DNA of 64,000 bases. It comes from Candidatus Latescibacterota bacterium (lineage in GTDB: Bacteria > Latescibacterota > UBA2968 > UBA8231). The translations under genes and the position numbers were made by a program. The notes under the pieces are model-generated. The model was not told where the DNA came from, searched no databases, and saw nothing but the letters and a program-made list of their open reading frames with translations. Location of the stretch: NCBI GenBank assembly GCA_965200315.1, contig OZ241362.1, positions 895,291 through 959,290 of the forward strand. Direction: 5' to 3'. Within the stretch, counting starts at the first letter, position 1. Each line of letters starts with the position of its first letter. Shown here piece after piece: positions 1 to 14,400 of the stretch.

Positions 1-208
1 GAGCGCGTGTAAAGCTGCACTACGTCTAAATGCGACCTGTGTTTAGACCCGCGCCGGTGCAGAGCCCAGGGGGTGGGTATGTATGAGGGGGACCGGCTTA
101 CGCAACATTGGTAGGGGGAGTTCGGCGGAAAGCGGCTTGACCAATCCGAATGAGGCGGGTTTATTTGCGCCGCCGCGCAAAACCGCTGATTGGGAAAGGG
201 GTAACGCC

Positions 209-655
209 ATGTGCAGCCATATCCGGTTCCTGCTCTGGGGGATGGTCCTATTGGGTGTGGCCGAGTGTACGCCCGCCCTACCCCCAAGACCGCTGCACAT
301 CCAAATCACCGGGGAAGAGTACACCTGGCAATTCCGCTACCCAGGCCCCGACGGCGCGTTGAACACTGCCGACGATATAGTCAAGCGAGGTAAGGAGTTA
401 CACCTTCCACTTGGTATAGAAATTGAACTCGAATTGACGAGCCGAGATTACATCTATACCTTCGCCCTACCCCATCTCGACCTGCGTCAGGTAGCCGTGC
501 CCGATTTAACCTTTGCGCTGGCCTTTACCCCACAAACCACCGGCGCATTCGCCTTCGTCGGCGACCAAATGTGCGGCTTTGAACACGAGTCGCTCAACGG
601 CCGCTTGGTAGTCGAGCCTCCAGCAGCTTTCGTCGCTTGGCTGACGGGGCCGTAA
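209..655 (+). CDS. small membrane-anchored cupredoxin-like protein (cytochrome/quinol oxidase subunit II C-terminal-domain-like, CuA ligands incomplete)
   Basis: ORF 83..655. Internal ATG at 209 is preceded by GGAAAGGGG. Hydrophobic N-terminus IRFLLWGMVLLGV. YTWQFRYP...DYIYTFALP...CGFEH follows the COX2 cupredoxin pattern, but the His, first Cys and Met ligand positions are Tyr, Gly and Leu. Confidence 0.5.
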   Translation: MCSHIRFLLWGMVLLGVAECTPALPPRPLHIQITGEEYTWQFRYPGPDGALNTADDIVKRGKELHLPLGIEIELELTSRDYIYTFALPHLDLRQVAVPDLTFALAFTPQTTGAFAFVGDQMCGFEHESLNGRLVVEPPAAFVAWLTGP

Positions 656-664
656 AGTCAGCCA

Positions 665-762
665 CCCCTCAGTCCAACCGTATCTCCTCCCCGGCCTCTT
701 GGCTGCGATAGATCCCATCGAGGATTTTCATCACCTGTAGGGATTGCTCCGGCGGCACCGGC
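665..762. repeat. direct-repeat copy A: orphan duplicate of the last ~31 codons plus stop of the oxidoreductase gene
   Basis: Block 669..762 aligns to 2611..2704 with 88/94 identities. The last 67 nt (696..762 vs 2638..2704) are perfect. On the minus strand it reads ...PVPPEQSLQVMKILDGIYRSQEAGEEIRLD*. Confidence 0.9.
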
Positions 763-773
763 TGTAGATGTAG

Positions 774-1418
774 TTAAGAGCTTTGGCTGTTTGGAAAGAA
801 CAACCGTTTCAACCAAGCAACAAGAACATCTACTTCTGGGACATTGGGATCGAGGAAGCAGGCGGTAATGGCCGTGCCGAAAGGCCGCCCTGGATCTTCT
901 TGCCAAGCAAGCCAAGTATGGACGATCGCCTTGGTCTCGTCTAGTGGTTTGAAACGCTGCTCGCCTTCAGGAATAGTGGCGACACTACCTTCCGCATGGT
1001 CAAAAAGGATGTTGGGTTGCGGAACGAGAAAGCGCAGAAAATCTTCCAAAATGCCGCTTGTTCGATTATTCGGCATAATCCAGATGCCCAATCGCGGTAA
1101 AAGTGTTCCTCGCGGAGGGTAGAGGATCGTTCCGTCTGGGCTCGGTTGAGCAGGCACCTCTTGGTATCCGACACCGATGATTCGATTTCGCACCGACTGC
1201 CAACGACTACTTATGTCCGTATCGGCGTCAACGACCACCCCAATAACGTCGCCTTCCTCGCTTAATTTGAGTCGGACGCCAAGACTCTCAATGAGTTTTT
1301 CGACATTGCCATGGCTTTCCACTCCATCAAGGTGAGGAATGCCGCGATTCCCGCAAATATGCTTCAGAACATGCTCGTCGTCAGTCCCTTCCACCATAAG
1401 CATTTTCCCGTTTGCCAT
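774..1418 (-). CDS. TOPRIM-like (DUF4435/DUF3226/RloB-type) putative nuclease effector
   Basis: ORF 774..1496. ATG at 1418 lies 1 nt after the ATPase stop (1420). MLMVEGTDDEHVL (conserved Glu), VVVDADTD (DxD) and GILEDFL fit the TOPRIM/OLD-type pattern. Confidence 0.6.
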   Translation of the reverse strand: MANGKMLMVEGTDDEHVLKHICGNRGIPHLDGVESHGNVEKLIESLGVRLKLSEEGDVIGVVVDADTDISSRWQSVRNRIIGVGYQEVPAQPSPDGTILYPPRGTLLPRLGIWIMPNNRTSGILEDFLRFLVPQPNILFDHAEGSVATIPEGEQRFKPLDETKAIVHTWLAWQEDPGRPFGTAITACFLDPNVPEVDVLVAWLKRLFFPNSQSS

Positions 1419-1419
1419 G

Positions 1420-2538
1420 TCAGCGCACCTCGACTTGGTCGCGCGTTGCAATGGCCAGTTCGTTTTCTGATAGCACAGTGGGAATAGTGTCCTCACCCCG
1501 GCGGGTCAAACGTATAAGTACCCCTTCTTTAGGTGCTTCGGCCGCCGCTTTCTGAAACGCCTCGACCGCGTCCCAACTATGGGACGTTGCAAAGACTTGA
1601 ATATCGAGCGTGTGCGCCAATCGGAATATCGTGCGCCACACATCTAACTGTACGGTGTGATGCAGGCCATTTTCAAATTCATCCACCAACAAAAGTCCCC
1701 CACGAGCGTTGACGAGGGAAAGAATTATTCCGAATAGCCGATTCAGTCCGTCGCCAAACGAGCGCAGTGGAACGGGTCGTGCGATATGGTCTGCGCGTAC
1801 AATGGCGGTAGGGTTCCTATGCGTGATGCCAACCATAGAAACGGCTGAAATCTCAGGAACGATGATGCGCAACGCTGCAACGACATCCTTCTCCCTGTCA
1901 GATAGCGCGATTTTATCCCACAATGGCCCTAACATTCCCGTGCCTTCGCCGCCGTAGGGACTGACGAAGATACAGGGCATCCGTCCGTCAGAGGGTTCAG
2001 AAAGCTCCCGGTGCATTGGGTAATGGTGTCTGCCAAAACGCTCGAGCAGGAGATTTCGCGTTCCTCCTTTCGTCTCGACGCTCAAAGCAGGGATACCTTC
2101 TGATTCATCCAAGAGGCTTGGTTGCTGAGGGACTAACCGATACTTTCCTGCCGAGTCGCGTTCCTCTGATAGCCAGCCCAAGCGCATCGTCATGCTCATT
2201 GGGCTCGACCTGCTACTGGTTGAAATAGCGATCGGCTTAGGGTTTTCTGAAAGCAGGGGAAATCCATAGAACAGCCCCGAAACCAGAAATAAGCTCTCAT
2301 GATCAGCGGAGCGCCCCCCTTCCTCTGCTTCTTCGATATTTTCTTCGCGGTATCTGAGTATATCGTAAATCACGTCAAGCGCAGCATTCTTGGCGAGAAT
2401 ATGCAGCCCTTCAAGAACAGATGATTTCCCGCTGTTGTTCCTTCCGGTAATCAGGTTCACGCGCCCCAAGCCACAGATGGTCAACTCGCGGAATGCGCGG
2501 AATCGCTCCAGCGTTAAGCTCTCAATTTTGAGACCCAT
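1420..2538 (-). CDS. ABC-type AAA ATPase (AAA_21/AAA_15-like; AriA/AbiLi/OLD N-terminal-domain-like)
   Basis: Walker A GRNNSGKSS, signature-like SFGDGLNRLFG, Walker B LLLVDEFENGLH, H-loop ATSHS. ATG at 2538 with AAAGGAAAA upstream. Confidence 0.8.
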   Translation of the reverse strand: MGLKIESLTLERFRAFRELTICGLGRVNLITGRNNSGKSSVLEGLHILAKNAALDVIYDILRYREENIEEAEEGGRSADHESLFLVSGLFYGFPLLSENPKPIAISTSSRSSPMSMTMRLGWLSEERDSAGKYRLVPQQPSLLDESEGIPALSVETKGGTRNLLLERFGRHHYPMHRELSEPSDGRMPCIFVSPYGGEGTGMLGPLWDKIALSDREKDVVAALRIIVPEISAVSMVGITHRNPTAIVRADHIARPVPLRSFGDGLNRLFGIILSLVNARGGLLLVDEFENGLHHTVQLDVWRTIFRLAHTLDIQVFATSHSWDAVEAFQKAAAEAPKEGVLIRLTRRGEDTIPTVLSENELAIATRDQVEVR

Positions 2539-2605
2539 GGCATTTTCCTTTCACTCATTCCTTCATTTCGCGACAACATATGCTAACCGCTCGAACATGA
2601 TTGGC

Positions 2606-2704
2606 CCCCTTCAGTCCAACCGGATCTCTCGCCCCGTCTCTTGGCTGCGATAGATCCCATCGAGGATTTTCATCACCTGTAGGGATTGCTCCGGCGGCAC
2701 CGGC
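2606..2704. repeat. direct-repeat copy B (functional 3' end of the oxidoreductase gene)
   Basis: See copy A. All 6 mismatches fall in the 27 nt next to the stop codon and give QETGREIRLD* versus QEAGEEIRLD*. Confidence 0.9.
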
Positions 2705-3666
2705 GAGGGCCGCCCTTGGGCAATCGCCGCGGCGAACTCCACGCATTCCTGCGCGTGGGCTTCTAGGCCGTCGTACATCAGCATGAGCTTGCGGTCGTAC
2801 TGTTGTCGGGTCTGGTTGTTGCTCTCGCAAATCGAGCACTGAGGCCAATGCGCACCGCCTCGGGTGCCGTAGAGCCACATCTGCATGTCCTCGCCTTGGG
2901 TCGGGTGATGCAAAAGCCAACTCACCTCCAAGACGAGCGTCGCACCATTGTCAAAGCGCACAAAGGCCGCGGCAAAATCCTCGACATCGTAGTGGGCTGG
3001 AATCGTCTGGCGACCCCATTGACTGAAAGCCCCTTCTTGGTGCGCCAATTCAGCGCGGGCCACGCCCGAAATAGCCACGGGCTCAGGATGCCCCATAAAC
3101 CACAAGGTCAGGTCGAGGATGTGAACCCCAATGTCGATGCAGGGGCCGCCGCCGCTGTGCTCCTTGAGAATGAACCCGCCACCGGTCGGCGCACCGGCCC
3201 GACGCAGCATCCAGCTACGAGCGTGGTAGATGTCGCCGAGTGCGCCTGTGTCTATCTCGGCTTTTAGCGCACGGGACGATCCCTGAAAGCGAAAGTGCTG
3301 CGCCGTCATCAACTCTTTGCCCGAAGCGTCGCGTGCCGCGATCATCTGGCGAACAGCCTCGGGCGTGGGAGCCAAGGGCTTTTCGCAGATCACGTGCTTG
3401 CCAGCCGACAGCGCGGCAATGGCCAATGGAGCGTGATACATGTTGGGCGTGCAGATGTCGATAATGTCGATATCGGGGTCGCTGAACAGTGCCTCCGGGT
3501 CGGTGTGCAGCTTGGTGACCCCGTTTGCTGCGCCAAAGCGCTGCAGCGCCTCCTCGCTAATATCGCTGCCAGCGATCAACTCGGCCTCGCTAGAAGCCTC
3601 CCAGCCGGGGATGTGCGTACCGGCAATTCCGCCAACGCCGACGATACCTACTTTGAGCGTACTCAT
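2611..3666 (-). CDS. Gfo/Idh/MocA family NAD(P)-dependent oxidoreductase
   Basis: N-terminal Rossmann motif KVGIVGVGGIAG, then EKP motif (VICEKPLA) and a typical C-terminal alpha/beta domain. Confidence 0.85.
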   Translation of the reverse strand: MSTLKVGIVGVGGIAGTHIPGWEASSEAELIAGSDISEEALQRFGAANGVTKLHTDPEALFSDPDIDIIDICTPNMYHAPLAIAALSAGKHVICEKPLAPTPEAVRQMIAARDASGKELMTAQHFRFQGSSRALKAEIDTGALGDIYHARSWMLRRAGAPTGGGFILKEHSGGGPCIDIGVHILDLTLWFMGHPEPVAISGVARAELAHQEGAFSQWGRQTIPAHYDVEDFAAAFVRFDNGATLVLEVSWLLHHPTQGEDMQMWLYGTRGGAHWPQCSICESNNQTRQQYDRKLMLMYDGLEAHAQECVEFAAAIAQGRPSPVPPEQSLQVMKILDGIYRSQETGREIRLD

Positions 3667-3722
3667 GGCTTATCCTTGTTTTTGGTTGTGGTTTGATCTA
3701 CGCGAAAGAGTCGTTGTTAGAT

Positions 3723-4475
3723 TTAGATCCGCGTCAGGGCTTCGGTCGGCATCCACCCGCCGAGGCCGTTGGCCAGCCTCACCAGCATCCACTCGCCCTC
3801 CTGCCGCACCAAGCGCACCTTCGTCCCTTCGTGCGCCACAAAAACCTCGGTCTGCCCGAGGTCCGGGCCGGAATACGCACGCACCTCGGCCACCGTGACG
3901 ATAGCTTCGCTCGTCTGCGCCTGATGGTGGAGGCGCGTCCCCAGCCAGAGCGCGGCCCCAACGCTCAGCCCCGCACAGAGCAAAACCCCGCCTAGCCACA
4001 GCGCACCGGGGCGCGTCTGCGCGAACAACCACCGCACCCCCAAGACAAAGACCGCGAAAAACGCCACCGCGAACAGCAGGCTGAGCTGGTTGAACGTGGG
4101 CCAGAAATAGGCGGCCACCAGCGCGGCTACTAGTGCGCCGAGGCCGTCCTGAGTTTGCGGGTCGCGGTCCTTCTTTACGAGGTTGGCGAAGCGCAGATTG
4201 GCTTCAACGTCCTCGTCGTGCGGCAGCAAGCGCTGCGCCCGCTCGTACCAGAGAATCGCTTCGCCCAGCTTCCCGGACTTGAAGCAGGCATTGCCCAGAT
4301 TGTAGTAGAGCCGCCCGTCTTGCACCCCAGCGTCCACCACCTCCAAGTAGCTGCGCCGCGCCGCCGCAAAATCCCCAGCCTGATAGAGCGCATTGGCCTC
4401 GTTGTACTGCCCAGCCGCAGCCCCGGCGTGGAGTTGAGTGCCCAGCAGGAGTAATAGCGCCAGTGCGCGCATCAT
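3723..4475 (-). CDS. batE: BatE-like TPR + C-terminal SH3 domain protein
   Basis: Signal peptide, TPR (YYNLGNACFKSGKLGEAILWYERA), membrane segments, SH3-like tail (EGEWMLVRLANGLGGWMP). ATGA overlap with batD. Confidence 0.65.
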   Translation of the reverse strand: MMRALALLLLLGTQLHAGAAAGQYNEANALYQAGDFAAARRSYLEVVDAGVQDGRLYYNLGNACFKSGKLGEAILWYERAQRLLPHDEDVEANLRFANLVKKDRDPQTQDGLGALVAALVAAYFWPTFNQLSLLFAVAFFAVFVLGVRWLFAQTRPGALWLGGVLLCAGLSVGAALWLGTRLHHQAQTSEAIVTVAEVRAYSGPDLGQTEVFVAHEGTKVRLVRQEGEWMLVRLANGLGGWMPTEALTRI

Positions 4476-6250
4476 ATCCGCTTCTCCAAACCCGCGATCA
4501 CCTCCCCGGCCAAGCGCCGTGCCGCCGCCCGGTCCGTCGGCGGACCGCCCGCGGGCGCAAAGCGCGCAAAATCGCAGCGCGTTAGCAGGTCGCGCAGGGA
4601 TTGGATCGTCTCAGCCGCGACTTGGCGCGCCGCTAGGGCCTCGGCACAAACCTCAATGGTCAGACCAGCCGCGGCGAGGTTGAGGCGGTCGGCCACAAAC
4701 TCCAGCACCGCGGCGCGGACCTCGCCGTAGAACTCGGCCTCGGTGCCAGCCTCAAGCAAGGCATCGGCGCGGGATAGGCGGCGGCCTGCTTCGCCTTTGG
4801 CCCGGCGCCGGCGCGCGTACGCCACATCGCCCTGCAAGCGCCGCTGGTGGCGTTGCCACACAAGCAGGGCCAAGAAGGCGAGGGGCAGTGCGCCCTGCCA
4901 GGTCCAAAACCAATAACGCTCGTGTAGCATAAGAGCCACGACGAGGGCCTCGACGTCGGGCTTGATGTAGCGAATGTCCTCTCCTACGGCTTCGATGTCG
5001 CGCCGGCTTAGCCCGTAGCTCACCCTTTCCTCCTCGGCACTCCCCTCGCTGTGAATGGTGATGGGCTCAGATTTGAGGACCTCATAGCGCGCTTGGTGTG
5101 GGTCGAAGTACGCAAAGCGCAGCGGCGGGATGTTCAGGGTGCCGCCCTGCTCGGGAATCAAGATGTACTCGAAGAGGCGGCGACCTCCGTACACGCCGCT
5201 GGTGATCCGCTCTTCTTCCTCGACCTTGGGATCGTAGAGCTTGACGCCAGCGACAGCATCGACTTGTAGAGGCTGCACCGCAGCCATGTTGCCCTCGCCC
5301 TCGACCAGCACGCGCAGCGTCACCGGATCCCCGGCCGCAACTTGGGTCGGCGGGGCCGCAACGCTGAGTTGGAAGCGCCCCACCGCGCCGGTAAATTCCG
5401 CCGGGCGACCCTGTTCGGGCAGCGGTAGGACCTCGATTTGCAATTCCTCGCTTTGCAGGAGCACCGAGCGAGAGCGGCCAAAGAACGGATCGCCGGCGAA
5501 GAAATCGTCGAGCAGGCCGCCGCGCCGCGAGCGCTTTTGCGGAATGTCGCAAGAAACGGCCAATGTGCCGACAGCGTGAGTCCCCGCGCCGGTGGGAAAA
5601 AGGGCCACGCGCCGCAGCGGCGCGACGCTGTAAGACACGCCGCCGCGCACCTCCTGATGCGACTCTAGCTGTTGGGCGACAAAGAGGTCTTCGGTCCAAA
5701 ACCCGACAAAGGTCGGCAGCTTGTTGAAGCTGACGTTGCGCGGTTGGATGCGGTAGAACAGGTCGTAGGACACGGTGACCTGCTGCCCCACATAAGCCCG
5801 CTGGTGGTCGGCGCGTGCCAACACGAAGATGGGACTCTCTCCTTGGCCGGCTTGCGCGCTGCTAGTGCCGCGGACGATCTCGACAGTAATGGGCTTGGTC
5901 TGATAGCGCTCACCGTCCATTTCTAGCTGGAGAGGACCAATAGTAAAGGTGCCAGCCTGCTTGGCATAGAGAGCATACGCTAGCTCGCGGGAGTAGCTAA
6001 CGTTGGAGAAGTTGCTCATCTCCATCCGCGTACTAGTCGCTGGCCCTTCGACGTGGAAATCCTTTAGGTCGAATGCTGGCGTCACTTGGGGCAACTGCTC
6101 GTCGGAGGTGATGCGGAGCGTCAGGCGAATCGGCTCGCCCTGACTAGCGCGCGTGCGATCGACAGACGCCTCGAACTGAATCGCCGCCGCCGCCTCGCTA
6201 GATGCCGCCAGCGCACACAGCACTAGCGGGATGGTTAGCCGCGCTTTCAC
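4472..6250 (-). CDS. batD: BatD-like oxygen-tolerance protein
   Basis: 592 aa. Signal peptide, repeated Ig-like beta modules, C-terminal TM plus helical tail. Position in the bat array. GTG start overlaps the batC stop. Confidence 0.65.
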   Translation of the reverse strand: MKARLTIPLVLCALAASSEAAAAIQFEASVDRTRASQGEPIRLTLRITSDEQLPQVTPAFDLKDFHVEGPATSTRMEMSNFSNVSYSRELAYALYAKQAGTFTIGPLQLEMDGERYQTKPITVEIVRGTSSAQAGQGESPIFVLARADHQRAYVGQQVTVSYDLFYRIQPRNVSFNKLPTFVGFWTEDLFVAQQLESHQEVRGGVSYSVAPLRRVALFPTGAGTHAVGTLAVSCDIPQKRSRRGGLLDDFFAGDPFFGRSRSVLLQSEELQIEVLPLPEQGRPAEFTGAVGRFQLSVAAPPTQVAAGDPVTLRVLVEGEGNMAAVQPLQVDAVAGVKLYDPKVEEEERITSGVYGGRRLFEYILIPEQGGTLNIPPLRFAYFDPHQARYEVLKSEPITIHSEGSAEEERVSYGLSRRDIEAVGEDIRYIKPDVEALVVALMLHERYWFWTWQGALPLAFLALLVWQRHQRRLQGDVAYARRRRAKGEAGRRLSRADALLEAGTEAEFYGEVRAAVLEFVADRLNLAAAGLTIEVCAEALAARQVAAETIQSLRDLLTRCDFARFAPAGGPPTDRAAARRLAGEVIAGLEKRI

Positions 6251-7035
6251 CAGTCCCTAGCCTGCGCCTTGCCGGTGGCACGAAACCGCCGCTGCTGAGC
6301 TTCCAACTCGCGGTTCTTGAGAGCATCCATGAGCTGCTGAGCTTCCTCGGGACTCATGGAGCGCTGCTCGGCAGGCTGCTCCTCCTGCTGTTGGTCCTGC
6401 TCACTTTGTTGCTGTTGCTGTTGATCCTGTTGGTCCTGCTCCGAATTTTGCTGTTGCTGTTGTTGGTCCTGTTGCTCTTGCTCTTCTGAATCCTGCTGAT
6501 TCTCCTGATTCTCCTGATTCTCCTGATTCTGCTCTGAATCTTGCTGCTGTTGATCTTGATCCTGCTCTTCTGAATCGTCCTGCTGTTCCTGCTGTTGCTG
6601 CTCCTGCTGCTCCTGCAATTTCTCCAGCGCCAGTTCCAAGTTCACCTTGGCATCCTCGTCGGTCGCGTCTAGTTCCAGCGCCTGCTTGTACGCGGCGACG
6701 GCCTGTTCAAACGCCTGCTGCTGAAAGAAGCTATTGCCCATGTTGTAATGGGCTTGCGACTGGATTTTTTTCTTTTCGGCGCTGAGCACCCGCTCAAATT
6801 CCCGTAGGGCTTGGTCGTATTCGCCGCGCTTAAAAAGCGCGTCCCCGACGTTGAAGTGCAGCTCGGGCGCGTCGGGCCGGTCGAGGAGGGCGTCTCGGTA
6901 GAGCTGTAGAGCCTGATCGTATTCGCCACGCTGGTAGTGCTCCAACGCCTCGGCGCTCTTGCTGGCCACGGGATCGCCCACGGTCGCTCCGCAGACGACC
7001 AGCCAGAGCCCCAAGAGGCCCCACAATGCACCCAT
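6247..7035 (-). CDS. batC: BatC-like TPR protein with long Q/E/D-rich tail
   Basis: ORF 6247..7131. ATG at 7035 overlaps the batB stop (TAATG). TPR repeats (HFNVGDALFKRGEYDQALREFERV), then ~90 aa of Q/E/D low complexity. Confidence 0.65.
   Translation of the reverse strand: MGALWGLLGLWLVVCGATVGDPVASKSAEALEHYQRGEYDQALQLYRDALLDRPDAPELHFNVGDALFKRGEYDQALREFERVLSAEKKKIQSQAHYNMGNSFFQQQAFEQAVAAYKQALELDATDEDAKVNLELALEKLQEQQEQQQQEQQDDSEEQDQDQQQQDSEQNQENQENQENQQDSEEQEQQDQQQQQQNSEQDQQDQQQQQQSEQDQQQEEQPAEQRSMSPEEAQQLMDALKNRELEAQQRRFRATGKAQARDW
6496..6531. repeat. 4 x 9-bp tandem repeat (ctgattctc) inside the batC Q/E-rich region
   Basis: Read directly. Encodes QENQENQENQ on the minus strand. Confidence 0.9.
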
Positions 7036-8060
7036 TAGGCGAACCGCCCCTTCCACTCGCGGGCCTGCACCCGCGCATCGCCTAAGAAAGCCTCGGCGAA
7101 GAAACAGCAAATTGCCAACAATAAGGGCCATTGGAAACGCTCCTGATAGCGGGTGAGGCGGGTAGAGCCGATCTCGCGCTGATCCATCTCGGCGATCTGG
7201 CCGTACAAGGCATCCAATTCCGCGCCGCCCAAGGTAGTGCGAAAGTAATCGCCTCCCGTCTCCAGCGCCATGTCCTGTAAGGTGCTCTCGTCGAGCCGGG
7301 TTTTGACGTATTGGCCGCGCTTGTCCTTGTGAAAGATCACGCCGCCGCCTTCCTCCTCAGTAGGGATAAGCTCGCCGTCAGGCGTCCCCAACCCCAAGGC
7401 AAAGATACGCACACCCTGTGCGGCGGCTGTCTGCGCCGCGGCCAGCGGCTGCCCCACGTGATCCTCGCCGTCGGTGAAGAGCACGATGGCCTTGTGCTGG
7501 CCTTCGCCCTCCTCAAACGAGCGCACGGCCAGCCGCACGGCGTCGCCAATGGCCGTCCCCTGGACGGGTATAGCCCCGGCGTTGAGCACATCGAGGAACA
7601 GCCCCACCGAGCCATAGTCAGTCGTCAGCGGGCACTGGACAAAAGCCTTGCCAGCAAAGACTACCAGTCCGACCCGATCACCTCGGAGCAAGTCCAACAG
7701 GCCGCGAATCTGGTGTTTGGCCCGCGCCAAGCGGCTCGGCTTGACGTCCTCGGCCTGCATGCTACGCGATACGTCGAGCACCAGCATCACGTCCACGCCC
7801 TTGCGCTCGGCCATTTCGAGTTGCGTACCGAATTGGGGGCCGGTCAGGGCTAGGATCGCAAAGAAGGTCCCCAGCCCCAATAAGACAAGTTTTCCCACTT
7901 GGCGACCCCGGCTCAAGTTGCGGGTCAGTTTCTCGGCCAGCGGGCCGCGGGCAAAACGCGCCAAGGCGCGGCGACGCGCCCAGAGCACCCAGGCAAAAAA
8001 GGCCGCCAAAAAGGGCAGCAACAACAGCAACCAAAAATTGTACAAGTTCGCAAAGCGCAT
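7035..8060 (-). CDS. batB: BatB-like von Willebrand factor A (VWA) membrane protein
   Basis: N-terminal TM pair, VWA MIDAS DVSRSM...TDGED, C-terminal TM. Confidence 0.75.
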   Translation of the reverse strand: MRFANLYNFWLLLLLPFLAAFFAWVLWARRRALARFARGPLAEKLTRNLSRGRQVGKLVLLGLGTFFAILALTGPQFGTQLEMAERKGVDVMLVLDVSRSMQAEDVKPSRLARAKHQIRGLLDLLRGDRVGLVVFAGKAFVQCPLTTDYGSVGLFLDVLNAGAIPVQGTAIGDAVRLAVRSFEEGEGQHKAIVLFTDGEDHVGQPLAAAQTAAAQGVRIFALGLGTPDGELIPTEEEGGGVIFHKDKRGQYVKTRLDESTLQDMALETGGDYFRTTLGGAELDALYGQIAEMDQREIGSTRLTRYQERFQWPLLLAICCFFAEAFLGDARVQAREWKGRFA

Positions 8061-8130
8061 ATAAACTCAGGACAGCGAGCGGATGTACAAGTTCGCAAAG
8101 CGCATATAAACTCAGGGCAGCGAGCGGAAG
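8041..8130. repeat. 2 x 45-bp tandem duplication of the batA-stop/batB-start junction
   Basis: 8041..8085 versus 8086..8130, 43/45 identical. Each copy carries tca (stop) and cat (ATG) in the junction arrangement. Confidence 0.9.
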
Positions 8131-9116
8131 CGGGTATGAGCCAACAGCATCTCCACCAACAGCAGGCCCAAGCCCGCGTAGAGAAAATAGGCAAAGCGCT
8201 CCGAATAATTCAGGTGGATTGCGGATTTGATCTCAGTCGCCTCTAACTCGCCGATCTCTCGGTAGATGGCCTCTAGCTTTTCCTCGCTGGTCGCCCGGTA
8301 GTACTGGCCGCCGGTGCGTGCGGCCACCTCCTGTAAGGTCTCCTCGTCGATCTCCACCTGTACGGTTTGATAGCGGGTGCCGAAAACTCCGCGCACGGGC
8401 CGGCGAATCTCCCCGTCGCTGCCCACGCCAATGGTATAGACCCGGATGCCCACGGCCGCGGCCACCTCAGCCGCGGTCAACGGTTCCACCTCGCCGGCGT
8501 TGTTGACGCCATCGGTCAGCAGGATAATCACCTTGCTCTCGGCGTCCGAGTCGCGCAGGCGGTTGCAGGCATTGATCAGCGCCATGCCAACGGCCGTGCC
8601 ATCCCATTCCTCGCTGGCGATCTCCACGCCTTGGAGAAACTCCAACAGCACTCGATAGTCGAGGGTCAGCGGGCACTGGGTGAAGCTCTCACCGGCAAAG
8701 ACGACCATGCCGATGCGGTCGCTGTGGCGGCCGGCGATAAAGTCGGCCACCACTTCCTTGGCCACCTGTAAGCGGCTCTTCTGGCCCTCGTCTAGGTCGT
8801 TTAACTCCATGCTCGACGAAATGTCCACGGTCAGCATAATGTCGATGCCCTCGCCCGATATTTCCCGCACCTCGCGCCCGGCTTGCGGGCGGGCCATAGC
8901 TGCGATGAGGCAACTCAAGCCAAGTAGCTTCAAAACCAAGAGACCGTGCCGGAGCTTGGTCCACAGCGACGCGGTGGCGCGGCGCAACACGCCGAGATCG
9001 GAAAACTGCACGCTGCTCCGGCGGCCCCGGTGCGCCCGCACATAGCTGTAGAGCAAGACTGGCAACAGCAGGAGTAGCAACAGCCACTCGGGATTTTCAA
9101 ACCGGATGTTCTGCAT
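8112..9116 (-). CDS. batA: BatA-like VWA membrane protein
   Basis: ORF 8112..9179. Likely start is MQNIRFENPEWLLLLLLLP at 9116. MIDAS DISSSM...TDGVNN. C-terminal TM. Confidence 0.75.
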   Translation of the reverse strand: MQNIRFENPEWLLLLLLLPVLLYSYVRAHRGRRSSVQFSDLGVLRRATASLWTKLRHGLLVLKLLGLSCLIAAMARPQAGREVREISGEGIDIMLTVDISSSMELNDLDEGQKSRLQVAKEVVADFIAGRHSDRIGMVVFAGESFTQCPLTLDYRVLLEFLQGVEIASEEWDGTAVGMALINACNRLRDSDAESKVIILLTDGVNNAGEVEPLTAAEVAAAVGIRVYTIGVGSDGEIRRPVRGVFGTRYQTVQVEIDEETLQEVAARTGGQYYRATSEEKLEAIYREIGELEATEIKSAIHLNYSERFAYFLYAGLGLLLVEMLLAHTRFRSLP

Positions 9117-10029
9117 GAGCCTCAGCAGCGCGGGTTGCGACCGTCTCCTCAATAGCGCACAGTATGGCCAAGCCGGCATCCGGTGCGCGCCGGGCCGCGT
9201 CTAGCGCCGGATGGAAGCGAGCGAACTTCACCAAGTCAGCCGCGGCCAAATAGTCGATAATCTGCTGCCTAAGCGAGTCATCTACTTCAGCCCTCTGCAA
9301 GGCGTTCGCCAACTCAGACGTGGTCTGCTCCATCGCTTCAACGGCCAAGCTTTCCTCCAAGAAGCGACGCAGGTTTTCCGCCAGCAGCGAATAGTATGTT
9401 TTGAACTCGCCGCGCTCCAACAGGCCACACGCGGCAATGCGTGCGAATTCAGCCGCGTAGTCTAGCGGCTCGGGCGGAGGCGGAGGCTCCAAGGTGCGGG
9501 TGCGGCGACGCCACAGCCAGACGCCGCCGAGCGCGCAAAGCACCAACGCCAGCAATCCGATTGCGACGACCACCCACAACGGCACTCCCCCGTGGACGGG
9601 CACGGGCGGCTTGATGTCGCGCAGTTGGTCCTCCCCTTCGCTCCGGGCACTGATGACTTCTATGGCTAGGGGTTGGGTGGCGCGCAGGAGCGTGTCGCCC
9701 GCAACGTTGACAAAGGGCACGGCCACGGCCGGCACTTCGTGTAGCCCCAGCTCGTAGAGGCGCAACTCGCATTCTTGCGCGAGCTCGAAGCCGGCTGCGA
9801 CCTCGCGTTGGTGCCAGCCGGCGCAGCGAGGGGCAAAATCCCGCAAGAGCTGGAGCAGGTCCGGGGCCTTGGGACGCACGGTGGCGTCGTGGTGTAGCGT
9901 CAACGTCAGGCGGATGGGATCGCCGACCCGAGCAGCCGCGGTGTCCAAGACCGCCTCGGCCCGAGGGGCTTGGGCGTGTAGCCCCTCGGCGAGGACCACT
10001 AGCGCGGCGAGCAGACCGCCGAGATACAT
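9097..10029 (-). CDS. DUF4381-like membrane protein with extra N-terminal beta-rich domain
   Basis: Signal peptide, BatD-like N-terminal half, single TM (LWVVVAIGLLALVLCALGGVWLW), helical tail. Position between the transporter and batA. Confidence 0.5.
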   Translation of the reverse strand: MYLGGLLAALVVLAEGLHAQAPRAEAVLDTAAARVGDPIRLTLTLHHDATVRPKAPDLLQLLRDFAPRCAGWHQREVAAGFELAQECELRLYELGLHEVPAVAVPFVNVAGDTLLRATQPLAIEVISARSEGEDQLRDIKPPVPVHGGVPLWVVVAIGLLALVLCALGGVWLWRRRTRTLEPPPPPEPLDYAAEFARIAACGLLERGEFKTYYSLLAENLRRFLEESLAVEAMEQTTSELANALQRAEVDDSLRQQIIDYLAAADLVKFARFHPALDAARRAPDAGLAILCAIEETVATRAAEAHAEHPV

Positions 10030-11444
10030 TACGGACTGTCAGCGCCGCCGTCGTCGGGGTCTTCGCTGCTGGCGGCGGGTACGGCCGGCTTTTTGGGAGC
10101 TTGCGCCACGTCGTCTATGTCCAAGTCCAACTCGGCGAAGTCGTCGCTACTCACCACGTACACCGCGTCGTCGTCGTCCTGTTGCAGGTACGAGGTTCCG
10201 GCAGTTCCGCTGAAACGCGCAGCCAGCAAGGTTTGCCCTGCGCCGAGGAGTTCAATACTGAAAACAGAAGTGGCCTCGGCGGGCAGTTCCTCGGCAAAAT
10301 TCTCGACTTCGAGCTGCTCTAAGTCGTTCAGGAGACTGTTGATCTTCCACGATTTGGCATCGCGCCCCATAGGCTCGGATAAATGCCACACACCGCTCGT
10401 ATCCTTGTCAGCCGCAAACGCGGTCGCAGCCCCGCGCGTCAGGACGATGCGCTCAACCTGCTCGCGCTCAAAGCGCAAGGGCTTTTTGTCGCGCAGCTCG
10501 GCGATGCCCTTGGTCAGCTCTTGCACCAGCGTCGAATCAACCAAGAAGACTTGCGGCCGGCTGGCGTCGCGCGCGTACCAACGGCCCTGTTCATCCTCAC
10601 CGCCAATGGCCAAGCGCTTCTCGGCCCGGTCTTCGCCGACGAGCAGGGCGATCTCCACCTGCGCCGCGCGTTCCCCCAAGCCATAAGAGGCCAAGTCGTC
10701 GGCATCGGGCTCTTCGGACGCAAAAGCCGCGATCTCGGCTTGGTTGATTTTGTCGATCAGGCCGTCCACCGCGTCGGCGTTGGCCCGAGCGACTACCGGC
10801 TCGCGCATTTGCCAGCCGGGCTCGGCCTGCGCCAGCACGGTCTCGCCGCCTGTGCCCCACCGCTGCACCTGCATCACCTCGTCTTTGGCAAAGGCCAGCA
10901 CCCGGCGGTCGCGCAGGTCAAAAGCGCGCTTGTCGAGGTTGTCGAAGCGCCAAGCGCGCACCGCGAAGATCGCGGGATTGTCGCCTTGCAGTTGGGCGTA
11001 GGTGAAGCGATCGGTGGGGCTGTCCGAGCCGAAAGCCACTACCTGCTCGGCACCGTCTGCGGTTTGCAGCCGCACCTTGAGCCGCGGCGCGTCGAACCCG
11101 TATTGCACGGCTTCCTCGGTGCTTGCAGCCGCGCTATCGACGATCACCTTTTCCCGCTCGCACTCGCGCAAATTGCGCAAGTAGCGCTCTACGGCCTCTT
11201 GGTCTGCGCCGTCGGTCACCGGCGCGCTCAGGTTCCAGCCGCTCGCCCCCTTGTCCAACACCAAGGCATCGTCGCCGCGCAACAGCTCGAGCCGCTGGGC
11301 ATCATCGTCCTCAAAGGCGAATAGCTGCTTGGATTGTTCCGCTTCTTGGCGGCGCTCCTCGCCGCCTTTGATCTCGTAGAAATAGACAAAGGCCAACAGC
11401 ACCACAAAGACGGCGCCGATCACTGCATTGGTCTTGAATTTCAT
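10029..11444 (-). CDS. DUF4340 domain protein (GldG-associated)
   Basis: N-terminal anchor MKFKTNAVIGAVFVVLLAFVYFYEI and repeated beta-rich modules. ATGA overlap with the upstream GldG-like gene. Confidence 0.6.
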   Translation of the reverse strand: MKFKTNAVIGAVFVVLLAFVYFYEIKGGEERRQEAEQSKQLFAFEDDDAQRLELLRGDDALVLDKGASGWNLSAPVTDGADQEAVERYLRNLRECEREKVIVDSAAASTEEAVQYGFDAPRLKVRLQTADGAEQVVAFGSDSPTDRFTYAQLQGDNPAIFAVRAWRFDNLDKRAFDLRDRRVLAFAKDEVMQVQRWGTGGETVLAQAEPGWQMREPVVARANADAVDGLIDKINQAEIAAFASEEPDADDLASYGLGERAAQVEIALLVGEDRAEKRLAIGGEDEQGRWYARDASRPQVFLVDSTLVQELTKGIAELRDKKPLRFEREQVERIVLTRGAATAFAADKDTSGVWHLSEPMGRDAKSWKINSLLNDLEQLEVENFAEELPAEATSVFSIELLGAGQTLLAARFSGTAGTSYLQQDDDDAVYVVSSDDFAELDLDIDDVAQAPKKPAVPAASSEDPDDGGADSP

Positions 11445-14400
11445 GCTAGCTCCTCTTGTACAAAGACCTTTTTAATCCACACGAGAATGGCCGCGTTGAC
11501 CACGAAGACTGCGGCGTAGAGCAGTTGGACCGTCTCGTTGGGAATCAGCGAGAAACCAAGGCTGGCACCGGTGAAAATCGTCAGCGCGACCACGCCGGCG
11601 CACAACCCTGAAAACGCCAAGCCGGCTTGCCAAGCCCACGCCGCGTGCCGATAGAGGCCGTAGCCAATGGCTGCCGAGGCCAAGGCCGCGATCAGTTTGA
11701 CCTCGCCCTCAAAGATCGCCCCCTCGCTGGTGGCAATGATGCCGCTGATGAAAAAGAACATCGCATTGCCCCAGAAGGTGTACACCAGCCACGACACAAA
11801 ACCTTCGGCATAGGTCTGATAGCCGCGCCTAAGCACCATGACCATGCCCGACAAAGCAACCGCAAACGGCACGATGAACACCGAGACCCAGAGAATAACC
11901 GCACCTTGATTGCCGATCAGGTTGATGGGGTTAAAGGCCGGTTGCTTGTCGGCGATGGTCAGGCGGTCTTCATCCTCGGTGAGCCAACTGACGCTGCCGA
12001 TGAATAGCTCGCCATTGGCCTGCTGAGCAAAGTACTGGTTGGAGGCAAAATCCGCGTCGCCAATGACCACCAGTCGCGTCCGTCCCTCGCCCTCGGGTGC
12101 CAAGCTGGTGTCGGCTGCCGCAGAGACGGCCACGCCCAGCGGCACCGGGCCGCTCAGATCGACTTCCGGGTCGAAATCCACCTCGCCGCCCTCGCCCATT
12201 ATGGGCGCTAGGTCCGCTTCGCCCCAACTGCTTTTGTGGGTATAGGCCAGCGCGGCGATGTCCGGCTCCTTGAGCCGGTGTTCAGTCATCTGCACCGAGC
12301 GCGCCAGCGGGAAAAAGCTCATCGTGCCGGCCGATAGCTTTGCGGTGATCGGGTGCTCTCCGTAGTTGATAACCACCGGCACGGAGGCATCCGCGCCAAA
12401 GAGCTGGCCCAAGCCGCTCAGATCGACGACAAAGTCCTGCCCCAGCTCGATCGAGTACTCGTTCAAGAGCGCTTCGAGCCCGGTCGGCTGGCCTGGATCG
12501 AGCAAAAACAGCGCACTGCCCCCGCCGGCCAAGTATTGCCGCAGCACTTCGGCCTCGGCCGCGGCAAAGCGCTCCTGAGGTGCCAAAACCACCATTAGTG
12601 TAGCGTCGTCGGGCACCGGATCGGCGAGCGTCAGCTCTCCCTCGACCGCGAAGTTGAGCTCCTTGAGACGGCCTTTGAGCGTGGAATAGCCCTGCTCATC
12701 GACTTGGTCGAGCTCGGCCTCGCCGTGGCCGCTGGTGAAATAGGCCCTTAGCTCGCGGCCTTTGAGCGCCTTGAGAATGGCATTGCTCAACGCCTCTTCG
12801 CTCTGGGCGGTAATGCGCTCGGTGCGCACCTGCCCTTGGTCGATCACCTCGACGATTGAAGTCCCCCGCTCGCGGATATTGTTCTGCTCGACGCGCAGCC
12901 GATTCTTCTGAGGATCGAGCAGCTCGTAGTCGAAGTTAGACGACACATAGCTGTATTCCTTTAAGAGATCCTCAAAGCGCACGTTTTCCATCTCGCCCAT
13001 GAAAGTCTTGACGTTGACGTACTGGCCGTGCTCTGCGAGGGGCGCGAGGAGCCGGTGGGTGTCGCCCGAGAGCGTAAACAGCGCGTCGGCCGTCATGTCC
13101 TGGCGGAGGTGGTAGCGGTCGCCGAGGAAGTTGACCAGCGCGGCAATGCCGAGCGAAATCACAATGCCCAACCCGGCCGCGCTCAAGTCGGCCAAGCTCC
13201 AGCGCCCCTTGCGCGAGACGACCACAATGCCGACCAAGGCGATTAGCCCCGGGTAGAGCACCACGCTGAGCCAGAAGATCCATTCGCCGTCGCTTTCGGT
13301 CAGGGCGATGGGGTTGTGGCCCGGTTCGCGGGGGCGGATCGAGATTAGGGCCTCGTCCTCGGCCAGCCAGCTCAAGGCGTTGAGCACCAAGTCGCCGTTG
13401 CCCTGGACGCCGAAGTACTGGTTGGTGGCAAAGTCCGAATCCCCAAAGACCACCAAGCGGCCCCCCGCCTCGGCGTCTCGGGCTGCGACAGCCAAAGACA
13501 CCGGCCCGGGCTGATCGACGCCCTCGTCGAGCTTGACCGTCTGATTGCCCTCGCTGGTGAGCACGCTCAAGTCGGTTTCGGCCCAACCGGCCTCCGACGT
13601 CTGGACTAGGATGGCTCCCTCGCGGCCGCTTTGCTCGTCAAAATGCACTGAGCGTCCAAGTTGGAAGAAGGTCATCAGGCCCTGGTGCTTGCGCGTTACT
13701 GGATGGTCGCCGTAGGAGAGGGCGACCGGCGTGGTAAAATCGAGGCCAAAGAGCGAGCCAATGCCGCTGGTGTCGATGACGAAGTCGTCGCCTATCGCCA
13801 CGCCCCACTCGCCCAACAACTCTTCCAAGCCGCTGTCGGCGAGCGGGTCCAAGAGCAACAGCAGGGCACCGCCTGCTGCTAGGTAAGAGCGTATGGCCTC
13901 GACCTCCACCGGGAAGAAGGGCGTGCGCGGGCCAGCGATGACCAGCACGGCGCAATTTTCGGGCACCGCCCCCTCGCGGGCGAGGAAGAGCGAATCCTCA
14001 ACCGCGTAGTCAATTTCCCCCAATTGGGCCTGTAGCTGCTCCAGCCCATCGGGTTGGTTTGCGAGTTGGCGCTCGCCGTGCCCCACGGTCAAGTAGATCC
14101 GGTCTTGGCGCTCGCGCGTGAGCTTGAGCAGCGAGTTGACGATCTCGCGCTCTTGGAGCTCGGTGATTTGCTGTTGCTTGTCGCCGCTTTCCAACACCAG
14201 CGTGTCGTAGCGGCGGATGCCGTAGGCTTCAGTGCGGAGCGGATCGCGGTCTGGGTCGATGAATTCGTAGCTAAAGCGAGTATTGTACGTCTCGAACTCG
14301 GCCAGCAGCAGCTCGAGTTCGGCGTTTTCACCTCCCTCCATAAAGGCGAGGGCGTGAACGTCCCGGTCCAGCGCCTTGATCGTCTCCACCGTCAAGTCGG

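Follow-up and report, generated by a model that had tools for sequence, protein, structure and literature searches.

Many defense hotspots sit between core genes without mobility genes, and their gain and loss are usually just assumed to reflect "recombination in the flanks." In a catalogue of E. coli hotspots, core defense hotspots are reportedly flanked by conserved genes. Core defense hotspots that lack mobile-element genes have a precedent in cDHS1 and cDHS2 of P. aeruginosa (Johnson 2023, PMC10250203), where turnover has been attributed to recombination in the flanks. A second precedent concerns the rhs, CDI and Vibrio T6SS effector–immunity loci, for which C-terminal displacement has been proposed (Jackson 2009; Kirchberger 2017, PMC5361080) and where homology-facilitated illegitimate recombination (HFIR) leaves orphaned 3′ regions behind (PMC5361080). 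The locus described here is an integrase-free defense hotspot that carries a rare mechanistic footprint.

The window, a 64,000-nt stretch of Candidatus Latescibacterota DNA, was searched for repeats. A single direct repeat stood out (665-762 versus 2607-2704; 98 nt, 91/98 identical, 93%), with a start-to-start spacing of 1942, and the remaining repeat families in positions 1-6000 are only 14-32 nt long. The two copies bracket a 1.84-kb low-GC insert between an oxidoreductase gene, whose 3′ end they duplicate, and a cupredoxin-type gene (Table 1). The first-pass annotation had described copies that are identical at 88 of 94 positions (669-762 and 2611-2704) and perfect over 67 nt (696-762 and 2638-2704), with six mismatches near the stop codon and ends that translate to ...QEAGEEIRLD* in the orphan and ...QETGREIRLD* in the live gene. 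All of this was reproduced, and the six mismatches fall within 15 nt and three codons. The same annotation placed the two convergent genes ~13 bp apart if the insert is removed; with the last base of the cupredoxin ORF at 655 and the stop codon of the orphan at 669-671, the distance is indeed 13 nt. Its statement that the insertion lies exactly at the stop codon needs correction. The repeat extends 4 nt beyond the oxidoreductase stop codon, and comparison with relatives indicates that the incoming DNA includes ~27 nt or more from the 3′ end of the gene. Scanning for promoters and terminators, and RNA folding of the orphan region, yielded no signal above shuffled controls.

Table 1. Features of the insert and its flanks, in order along the window.
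Feature	Position	Strand	Description
Cupredoxin-type (COX2 periplasmic domain-like) gene	209..655	+	Pfam COX2 9e-6; right-hand core flank of the hotspot
Native oxidoreductase-cupredoxin spacer remnant	656..664		Empty-site type; colinear with empty L002/L008/L011
Orphan oxidoreductase 3′ end	665..762	-	Terminal 94 nt with the 4 nt after the stop; putatively the displaced resident end, tail QEAGEEIRLD*
Filler at the joint of cassette end and orphan	763..769		7 nt, ATCTACA in gene sense
DUF3226 protein, PDC-M38B	774..1418	-	214 aa; Pfam DUF3226 1e-65; PADLOC PDC-M38B 2e-50
ABC-type (AAA_21/AAA_15) ATPase, PDC-M38A/AbiLi-like	1420..2538	-	372 aa; Pfam AAA_21 2e-20
Cassette leader	2539..2606	-	Probably arrived with the cassette; shortened as in L009
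Live repeat copy, divergent end	2607..2637	-	6 substitutions in 15 nt plus different post-stop sequence; presumably donor-derived
67-nt block identical to 696-762	2638..2704	-	Putative homologous exchange site
Gfo/Idh/MocA oxidoreductase	2611..3666	-	351 aa, intact; Pfam; left-hand core flank of the hotspot

The insert holds two co-oriented genes, the ATPase stop and the start of the DUF3226 gene being 1 nt apart, and its non-coding DNA amounts to stretches of 11 nt and 68 nt. The ATPase matches the PADLOC profile PDC-M38A (1.9e-85, residues 5-372 on profile positions 2-383 of 383) and also the AbiLi (3e-59) and AriA (2e-23) profiles. Its partner matches PDC-M38B (2.3e-50, residues 9-212 on profile positions 13-218 of 220) and has invariant E-G..D and DxD motifs. 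Judged by these profile matches, the insert appears to be the PADLOC candidate system PDC-M38 with both components adjacent, and the DUF3226 protein is presumed to be the effector of the pair. We therefore treat the cassette as a candidate anti-phage module with a predicted defense function. No report of anti-phage activity of the DUF3226 protein or PDC-M38 was found in the literature searched, and in the single assay published for the related HEC-01, no protection was seen. The partner matches only DUF3226/PDC-M38B even at E <= 10, and thus no DUF4435/TOPRIM-type partner (AriB, AbiLii) was detected. An AlphaFold2 model of the DUF3226 protein from a 33-sequence alignment reached a mean pLDDT of only 52, Foldseek against the PDB returned nothing below E = 0.1, phmmer and hmmsearch found no match among PDB sequences, and hhalign gave a probability of only 1.5% against DUF4276. 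Given these null searches, assigning the DUF3226 protein to the TOPRIM fold would be a motif-based suggestion. The leader is conserved with that of relatives (..GTTCGAGC.GTT.GC.TAT.TTGTCGC..) and has no match to the sigma-70 consensus.

We compared the locus with 23 sister genomes (21 close relatives and two extra cassette-bearing genomes) and with 150 further loci. BatD, TPR and oxidoreductase genes lie on one side of the gap in all 23 relatives, and the cupredoxin gene lies on the other side in 20 of them; the loci of L005, L019 and L041 end before it. The gap is empty in three relatives (L002, L008 and L011). Elsewhere it contains PDC-M38, HEC-01, both of these, a type II R-M system with retron I-C, SLFN/RadC, an SLFN/AlbA_2 protein, an MTase fragment or remnants, and these occupancy states are scattered over the tree of the flanking genes. 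The remnants in L020, L015 and L009 are deletions with microhomology joints. The variable DNA of sister genomes sets in ~20-27 nt beyond the stop of the oxidoreductase gene, next to the stop codon of the cupredoxin gene. The oxidoreductase-cupredoxin gap is an integrase-free defense hotspot in a clade of Candidatus Latescibacterota that is apparently sponge-associated.

Ten sister genomes have a homologous PDC-M38 cassette at the same site, all without a duplicated gene end, and no orphan oxidoreductase fragment was found in the 21 close relatives, the two extra cassette-bearing genomes or the 150 further loci. The oxidoreductase protein itself, for which no exact sequence is on record, shares 91-96% amino acid identity with 20 Latescibacterota MAG loci in a genome scan. 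A metagenome scan with the oxidoreductase recovered one close relative only (L082) and no conspecific empty site. The first-pass annotation inferred that the unit had arrived by integration or recombination, and an insertion of foreign-looking DNA survives the comparison: the GC content of the insert is 52%, against 61-63% in the flanks, so its composition is not host-like, the duplication occurs in no relative, and three sites are empty. The PDC-M38 and HEC-01 modules are low in GC across the hotspot (50.6-54.6%), as is the L041 island (42.5%), with flanks at 61-64%. Relatives thus provide both the empty sites and the other cargo that had been anticipated, but none of that cargo is bracketed by the same repeats.

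The central ATPase region groups with L009/L015 and the oxidoreductase body with the other clade, so the cassette is phylogenetically incongruent with its flank. No clean recombination breakpoint between flank and cassette was found; instead of a single switch, the informative sites form a mosaic. A 19-nt copy of a motif from the upstream spacer comes after the cassette in L015/L175, for which L020 provides the matching cassette-free site. This is a second, independent case of the same topology.

The two joints of the insert differ. From the oxidoreductase onward, homology to cassette-bearing relatives continues without a gap across the cassette and 4 nt beyond the stop of the DUF3226 gene; it ends at window position 770 and is followed by the 7-nt filler and then the orphan. 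No locus of a sister species has the filler; every contig of a conspecific strain that spans the joint has it. On its other side, the orphan is contiguous with an empty-type spacer, which is ~15 nt shorter than in empty relatives, and with a cupredoxin gene that has the TAA stop of the "empty-site" type, an arrangement colinear with the empty sites of L002/L008/L011. The haplotype of the 67-nt block is specific to this genome, with 2-7 differences from each comparable relative. The orphan has 2-8 mismatches to relatives (2-4 in 14 of the 19 comparable ones), and the divergent end of the live copy has 5-9 mismatches to every relative. The orphan tail is the consensus of the relatives, and the live tail (ACGGGGCGAGAGATCC) is an outlier to all of them. 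No template for the six clustered substitutions occurs in the window or in 162 loci, nor is there a second copy elsewhere in these sequences.

In combination, the uniqueness of the duplication, the consensus-type orphan with its empty-type spacer, the outlier live tail, the filler and the lack of a recombinase in the insert indicate that the 98-bp repeats most likely represent a scar left by a single recombination event without an integrase, and not the ends of a mobile element. The explanation that we consider probable is that an empty site gained PDC-M38 from a donor, by homologous exchange on the left and an illegitimate joint on the right, the repeats being the scar and not att sites. Of the modes of arrival previously proposed, the best fit is recombination with a donor that has the same locus; site-specific integration is not supported. 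As in loci where displacement has been described, the orphan 3′ fragment lies directly downstream of the cargo and the new 3′ end has diverged; one junction is homologous (the 67-nt block) and the other is non-homologous (the filler).

Under displacement, the site would have been empty in the lineage of this genome before the event. A related donor would have supplied PDC-M38, with the ABC ATPase as sensor/motor and the DUF3226 protein as effector, on DNA that included the leader and the last ~27 nt of the donor oxidoreductase gene. The left joint would have formed by homologous exchange within the 67-nt oxidoreductase stretch, and the right joint by illegitimate joining to position -94 of the resident gene, with the 7-nt filler in between. 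This may have involved direct joining that bridges two sister chromosomes, or circularization of the fragment followed by single-crossover integration. The resident 3′ end would have been pushed downstream to become the 98-nt orphan. As a by-product, the 67-nt perfect repeat should permit precise loss of the cassette without an integrase, as host RecA could pop it out via the repeats and restore the intact gene. We infer the exact molecular route as well as the direction, in which an empty site gained the cassette; the direction is based on colinearity and the TAA-type stop only. The alternative is the opposite direction, in which an empty-type right flank was imported into a cassette-bearing genome.

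Other observations count against displacement. No donor was found in databases, where the nearest cassette has 82-87% nucleotide identity, and the live patch was found nowhere else. A donor so divergent is expected to differ within the 67-nt block too; where two relatives differ at 5-7 of the last 27 nt, they mostly have 3-5 differences in the block, and never 0. The perfect block despite a divergent donor therefore calls for exchange at its 3′ edge (both blocks being resident-derived), a conspecific donor or later gene conversion. Moreover, single-duplex ssDNA HFIR alone makes no duplication, so that the model has to invoke a circle or an intermediate of two chromosomes.

The shared, genome-specific haplotype of the two 67-nt blocks would be accounted for if the repeats arose by internal rearrangement, with tandem duplication of the last 98 nt plus the cassette and subsequent loss of the second cassette copy together with the remaining island. 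Deletions of this sort do occur in the hotspot, as illustrated by the microhomology joints of the L020, L015 and L009 remnants. However, at least two steps are needed, and the deletion must recreate both the empty-type spacer and the TAA-type cupredoxin stop. It is also left unexplained that the six clustered changes and outlier tail are on the live copy and not on the unconstrained orphan, and that the cassette and flank are incongruent. We consider internal rearrangement unlikely, though it deserves more weight than the explanations that follow.

Direct repeats that duplicate a gene 3′ end and restore its frame are the classic footprint of site-specific integration, and the first-pass annotation read them as attL and attR of a decayed or trans-mobilized islet. 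The unit would be ~1.9 kb, with an attP that includes the oxidoreductase 3′ end and an integrase that was lost or acts in trans. A long perfect core (67 nt) adjoining a divergent arm and the existence of empty sites are both in keeping with this. Nevertheless, the att reading did not hold up against the relatives, as the ten cassettes at the same site lack the duplicate, no other cargo uses the supposed att (with an orphan in 0 of 150 loci), and the variable DNA of sister genomes begins outside the gene. The 7-nt filler at the right junction is unmatched, and inverted-repeat or arm-site architecture is lacking there. The claim that no recombinase lies within or beside the unit was upheld: the two genes plus non-coding stretches of 11 nt and 68 nt fill the insert, so that neither a recombinase nor a remnant would fit, and a rough scan of the 64-kb window with XerD and Hin queries (approximate sequences) found nothing, although this search covered 64 kb of a 5.36-Mb genome. 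In addition, phage and viral collections contain essentially no members of the cassette family, with one distant match in the viral collection and none in the phage collection. On balance, we regard site-specific integration as improbable. Two other element classes were considered and rejected. For a transposon- or IS-borne cassette, there is no inverted repeat at 763/2606 and no transposase. For an integron cassette, the 11 nt after the DUF3226 stop leave no room for attC, and the 64 kb contain no integrase-like ORF or IntI.

Two independent events, those in the window and in L015/L175, placed duplicated upstream sequence immediately behind the cassette, and the right boundary lies 0-11 nt from the DUF3226 stop in four different contexts. 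These observations, and the occurrence of the ATPase-DUF3226 pair on small plasmids of Gammaproteobacteria, raise the question of whether the cassette is itself a small mobile unit. In one form, for which we see a slim chance, a recombinase-less PDC-M38 circle would take along an upstream piece and re-integrate by short-homology or host recombination, perhaps aided by its own nuclease/ATPase. If true, the 98-nt and 19-nt (L015/L175) repeats would be footprints of one process, which could be a general route for filling integrase-free defense hotspots. The related form, in which a unit with a circular intermediate and no dedicated recombinase moves by its own nuclease/ATPase or a short end site, is slimmer still. 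The duplicated segments differ, however, being 98 nt of gene in one case and 19 nt of spacer in the other, and this disagreement in position and length implies that no site is common to them. The tight right boundary could reflect selection for an intact operon, and the cassettes of most genomes have no flanking repeat at all.

Metagenome bins can be mis-assembled through repeats, so a mis-join could in principle have created the repeat or misplaced the cassette. Every junction was reproduced in independent Logan assemblies from at least 9 runs, in strain variants with identical structure at 98.3-100% identity. Contigs L166 and L168 span the cassette, filler, orphan and cupredoxin gene uninterrupted. 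In other contigs, the sequence stops exactly k-1 = 30 nt inside the 67-nt block, which is what a genuine repeat should produce, and L164 ends exactly at 762, most simply because of a missing k-mer edge. The arrangement is fixed in the strain population and, with each novel junction present in contigs of at least 9 runs, an assembly artefact is effectively refuted. At k = 31, all k-mers of an empty allele or a circle occur in the integrated form too, so that these forms would look alike in the Logan graphs. The oxidoreductase gene is cut at the repeat in the Logan contigs retrieved.

The locus appears to record one gain physically: a gene end has putatively been displaced, one junction has a filler, and the exchange point can be located to within a few bases. 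In addition, sister species of the same lineage show the empty, single-module and double-module states. It is also a compact hotspot for defense-gene mining in an uncultured, apparently sponge-associated phylum.

The ATPase and DUF3226 pair, as far as gene content and context can tell, behaves like a candidate defense module. As in PARIS AriA/AriB, AbiL, HEC-01 and OLD/Gabija, the operon pairs an AAA_15/21 ABC ATPase with a small partner gene downstream. The partner here is a DUF3226 protein, whereas it is a DUF4435 protein in PARIS (AriB) and a DUF4276 protein in HEC-01 (HEC-01B).

With P4-like satellites, ICEs and tycheposons, the locus shares direct repeats that bracket cargo, a gene restored by incoming sequence and empty sites in relatives. 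It differs from them in lacking an integrase, in a repeat that no other genome or cargo reuses, in a filler at one junction, and in a cassette that is normally repeat-free at this site. Displacement at the rhs, CDI and T6SS loci (PMC5361080) is closer: the homology anchor is in a conserved upstream gene, there is no recombinase, and a new 3′ end with its cargo functionally replaces the old one, which persists as a downstream orphan. In contrast to those loci, the anchor here is an ordinary oxidoreductase and not a polymorphic toxin, the cargo is a candidate defense module, and the displaced piece is only 98 nt, functionless alone and the product of a single displacement without an array. Hotspots of the cDHS1/2 type (PMC10250203) resemble this one in their fixed core flanks, highly variable defense content that poorly tracks phylogeny, GC content below that of the flanks, and many sites without an integrase or transposase. 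Compared with these, the Latescibacterota hotspot is far smaller (0-6 kb, 1-3 systems), belongs to an uncultured phylum, has no tRNA or tmRNA at its border, and retains a physical scar of acquisition.

A repeat search over window positions 1-6000 returned a single long direct repeat family, a 98-nt sequence at 665-762 and 2607-2704 (93% identity, spacing 1942); the remaining families were 14-32 nt each. The repeat is real and far above chance. It includes a 67-nt perfect block (696-762 = 2638-2704) and extends 4 nt beyond the stop codon of the Gfo/Idh/MocA oxidoreductase. The six coding mismatches are clustered in 15 nt and three codons. The live oxidoreductase ends in ...QETGREIRLD*, and the orphan, a detached copy of this 3′ end, would encode ...QEAGEEIRLD*. 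Repeat search and alignment confirm the first-pass annotation on the perfect 67 nt, the six mismatches near the stop and the two differing tails, and the ~13 bp that it placed between the cupredoxin gene end and an oxidoreductase-type stop are 13 nt, ending at the orphan stop codon.

Exact-protein look-ups recovered Logan contigs that come from nine or more sequencing runs and reproduce the junctions, so the structure is not an assembly artefact, an alternative raised earlier. Contigs L166 and L168 are unbroken from the DUF3226 gene through the filler and orphan to the cupredoxin gene, and L001 and L165 run from the live tail through leader and cassette into the filler. Five oxidoreductase contigs break off 30 nt into the 67-nt block, precisely k-1, the point at which a genuine repeat would have to end them. 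Because the contigs vary elsewhere (0-1.7% site differences from the window) yet are identical in filler and orphan, the arrangement is fixed in the strain population, as seen in k = 31 contigs, where k-mers of an empty allele or a circle all occur in the integrated form too. Contig L164 (SRR33991084, equal to window 1-762) differs from those of other runs, which end 30 nt into the block: it passes the whole block from the cupredoxin side and ends exactly at the repeat boundary, 762. The simplest cause is that a k-mer edge contributed by the live copy is missing; heterogeneous alleles in that sample are a second possibility.

The insert comprises two co-oriented genes, 1 nt apart. Both proteins are end-to-end matches to the PADLOC candidate system PDC-M38 (A 1.9e-85, B 2.3e-50); AbiLi (3e-59) and AriA (2e-23) are further matches of the ATPase. 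Non-coding DNA amounts to just 11 nt (763-773) and 68 nt (2539-2606), which leaves no space for a decayed recombinase. The insert has a GC content of 52.1%, against 61.3% for the oxidoreductase and 62.6% for the following 8 kb. The remainder of the window is housekeeping (Bat operon, ribosomal protein and RNA polymerase operons, SbcCD). A rough check of the 64 kb with approximate XerD and Hin query sequences (tblastn and phmmer) found no recombinase, which upholds the earlier statement that none lies within or beside the unit.

Features of the insert and its cupredoxin-side flank (window positions)
Feature	Position	Strand	Evidence
Cupredoxin-type gene	stop at 655	+	Pfam COX2 domain 9e-6
7-nt filler ATCTACA	763-769	gene sense	seven bases found in no relative
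DUF3226 protein, 214 aa	774-1418	-	Pfam DUF3226 1e-65
ABC-type ATPase, 372 aa	1420-2538	-	Pfam AAA_21 2e-20, AAA_15 3e-18

Two local features were noted in the Bat region. A 45-nt tandem duplication (8039-8128; 2.0 copies, 97%, perfect-looking) lies at the boundary of two genes encoding VWA-domain BatA/BatB-like proteins and overlaps the start of the downstream one. A BatC-like TPR protein has a low-complexity tail rich in Q, E and D and containing repeats of 9 to 39 nt, which accounts for the low GC and the strong AT skew of -0.6 at 6300-6620.

A scan of one genome per species yielded 20 loci with an oxidoreductase 91-96% identical, all from Ca. Latescibacterota or MAGs mislabelled as Gemmatimonadota; one locus from metagenomes and two from ENA bring the relatives to 23. 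Upstream genes are the same in 23 of 23, and the convergent cupredoxin gene lies downstream in 20, the fetched loci of L005, L019 and L041 having ended before it. This comparison, suggested by the first-pass annotation, revealed three empty sites as well as other cargo. In a neighbour-joining tree built from 3 kb of flanking sequence, gap states are scattered, with L007 (M1+M2), L012 (M2) and L008 (empty) as nearest neighbours. The gap is a small defence hotspot flanked by core genes, with rapid turnover and no mobility genes.

Content of the oxidoreductase-cupredoxin gap in relatives (M1, PDC-M38 module; M2, HEC-01 module of AAA_21 ATPase and DUF4276, HEC-01 matches 4e-167 / 7e-81)
Content	Loci
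Empty, 26-29 nt	L002, L008, L011
M1, alone or then M2 remnant	L009, L015, L175
M2, alone or with small upstream ORF	L003, L010, L012, L018, L082
M1 + M2	L004, L005, L007, L013, L016, L017, L176
Type II R-M + retron I-C RT-Toprim	L041
Schlafen/AlbA_2 protein + RadC	L019
Type III methyltransferase fragment + small ORF	L014
One small ORF, function not assigned	L006
M2 remnant	L020

The L041 hotspot (7328-12947, 42.5% GC) pairs a Dcm methylase with a HATPase/PD-(D/E)XK restriction enzyme beside the retron gene. The longest hotspot version contains an ORF (L005:11514-12389) with an N-terminal zinc-ribbon, CPNCGS...CRxC, and no PADLOC match; by eye only, we take this N-terminus to resemble an IS1595-family transposase. 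A small palindromic motif, GGATGAACGCATCC, occurs ~24-42 nt after the oxidoreductase stop in L003, L015, L016 (7081-7099), L017 and L018. The sequence directly after it varies with the following module, so the motif delimits the variable DNA on the oxidoreductase side; this DNA as a whole sits at a point that, in empty sites, directly adjoins the cupredoxin stop codon. Microhomology (GAACGCAKCCA) between the motif and the HEC-01 ATPase gene explains the deletion joint in L020.

The simplest reading of these alignments is that the resident locus was empty before acquisition, that live tail, leader and cassette would have been imported from a related donor, and that the resident tail would have been displaced downstream. 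Save for a ~15-nt deletion, the orphan, its downstream spacer and the cupredoxin gene with its TAA stop are colinear with L002, L008 and L011, where the site is empty. Among 17 longer-gap relatives whose cupredoxin end was fetched, all 12 with a readable stop have TGA, and most of these share a different, conserved cupredoxin-proximal sequence. The orphan tail is the commonest tail among relatives; its last 27 nt show 2-8 differences from them (2-4 in 14 of the 19 comparable), and the live tail shows 5-9 from every relative. The post-stop leader of the live copy (AGGGGGCCAA...) resembles the shortened leader of L009. The cassette ATPase gene is nearest to L015 and L009 (87.3% and 85.9% nt), the relatives to which the oxidoreductase body is least similar. 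At informative sites that body sides with the other clade and the centre of the ATPase with L009/L015, and the cassette overall is mosaic.

The 67-nt block carries a genome-specific haplotype in both copies, with 2-7 differences from each comparable relative. Since no relative pair with 5-7 differences in the last 27 nt has an identical block (3-5 differences in most), a plain comparison of donor and recipient alleles fails. Three readings can explain the block, each invoking host recombination and a single illegitimate joint. (a) If homologous exchange was resolved at the block's 3′ edge, both copies of the block would be resident DNA, and the right-hand illegitimate joint would have been made to a second locus copy, for example on a sister chromosome. 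(b) A conspecific donor with the same block sequence may have supplied a fragment that circularised and integrated through a single crossover in the block, no other stretch being of sufficient length for RecA. (c) The block may have been homogenised by gene conversion at a later time. A search for a template of the clustered substitutions found none. Given RecA biology, the perfect repeat should permit precise loss of the 1942-bp unit, leaving an intact gene with the orphan tail. On balance we favour, with some reserve, a one-off 3′-end-displacement scar, by which an empty hotspot gained a PDC-M38 candidate defence module without an integrase.

The relatives L015 and L175 provide a further case with this topology. 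In both, the spacer motif AATCGGATGAACGCATCCA stands ahead of the cassette; in L015, AATCGGACTAACGCAGCCA stands directly past the DUF3226 stop, joined to a HEC-01 ATPase 3′ remnant (one further mismatch in L175). The bracket in L015 is an imperfect 19-nt direct repeat (7080-7098 and 8784-8802), with an equivalent in L175; L020 has the same fused joint once (7080-7098) and no cassette. By our own calculation, the chance expectation for a 16/19 match exactly at the junction is ~1e-3 (6-kb region, both strands). On two or more occasions, therefore, cassette and upstream sequence have been set before a copy of that sequence already resident at the site. The L015/L175 case is an event independent of the one in the window. 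The duplicated segments differ (19 nt of spacer there, 98 nt of gene in the window), which argues against a fixed site; the two cases fit either repeated events of anchoring plus an illegitimate joint or a circular intermediate. A recombinase-less circular cassette would be interesting if true, and we consider it very improbable.

The repeats had also been read as attL and attR of a site-specifically integrated islet, which does not hold: the oxidoreductase 3′ end is duplicated in none of 21 close relatives (eight with a homologous cassette at the same place) nor at the site in L175 and L176, although ten carry the cassette, and variable DNA in relatives begins 20-27 nt past the oxidoreductase stop, beside the cupredoxin stop codon, not inside the gene. 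Among 150 wider loci, second copies occur only as full tandem paralogues, with no orphan fragment, and no relative has other cargo between the same repeats. Homology with cassette-bearing relatives is unbroken from the oxidoreductase through the cassette as far as window 770, 4 nt beyond the stop of DUF3226, and the filler separates its end from the orphan; the ends lack inverted repeats or arm-like structure. The earlier interpretation is therefore partly supported, in that insertion by recombination with a related donor stands and the att-bounded islet does not.

An AAA_15/21-type ABC ATPase with a small nuclease is a recurrent defence design (PARIS, AbiL, OLD/Gabija, HEC-01; PMC11464382; bioRxiv 10.1101/2024.01.29.577857). 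In an alignment of 33 DUF3226 sequences, E10-G11..D14 and D64-x-D66 are invariant and align with VEGGGD / VDSE of DUF4276, the domain of HEC-01B, described as TOPRIM-like (bioRxiv 10.1101/2024.01.29.577857). Fold comparison of DUF3226 gave no match (AF2 model pLDDT 52; Foldseek and PDB sequence searches empty; hhalign 1.5% probability). On Acinetobacter and Plesiomonas plasmids the two genes likewise form a conserved operon, and the phage collection lacks the pair. The ATPase is most variable among relatives in its central third (window 1900-2250; 71-86% nt vs 85-90% at the gene ends), as expected for a sensor insert; this region, which carries sites grouping the genome with L009/L015, may be such an insert under diversifying selection or may undergo frequent allelic recombination. 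A defence function for PDC-M38 is a well-motivated guess, and stays one because our literature search found no mention of DUF3226, nor of PDC-M38 among the papers listed, and because the single published assay of HEC-01 showed no protection (bioRxiv 10.1101/2024.01.29.577857).

Both elements of the favoured reading have known precedents. Defence hotspots likewise flanked by core genes and free of mobility genes have been described as cDHS in P. aeruginosa (PMC10250203). In rhs, CDI and Vibrio T6SS effector-immunity loci, "C-terminal displacement" is attributed to homology-facilitated illegitimate recombination (PMC5361080); there, too, a new 3′ end arrives with cargo and the old one is orphaned downstream with no recombinase, whereas the gene concerned by the proposed displacement in the window is an ordinary oxidoreductase that borders a defence hotspot.
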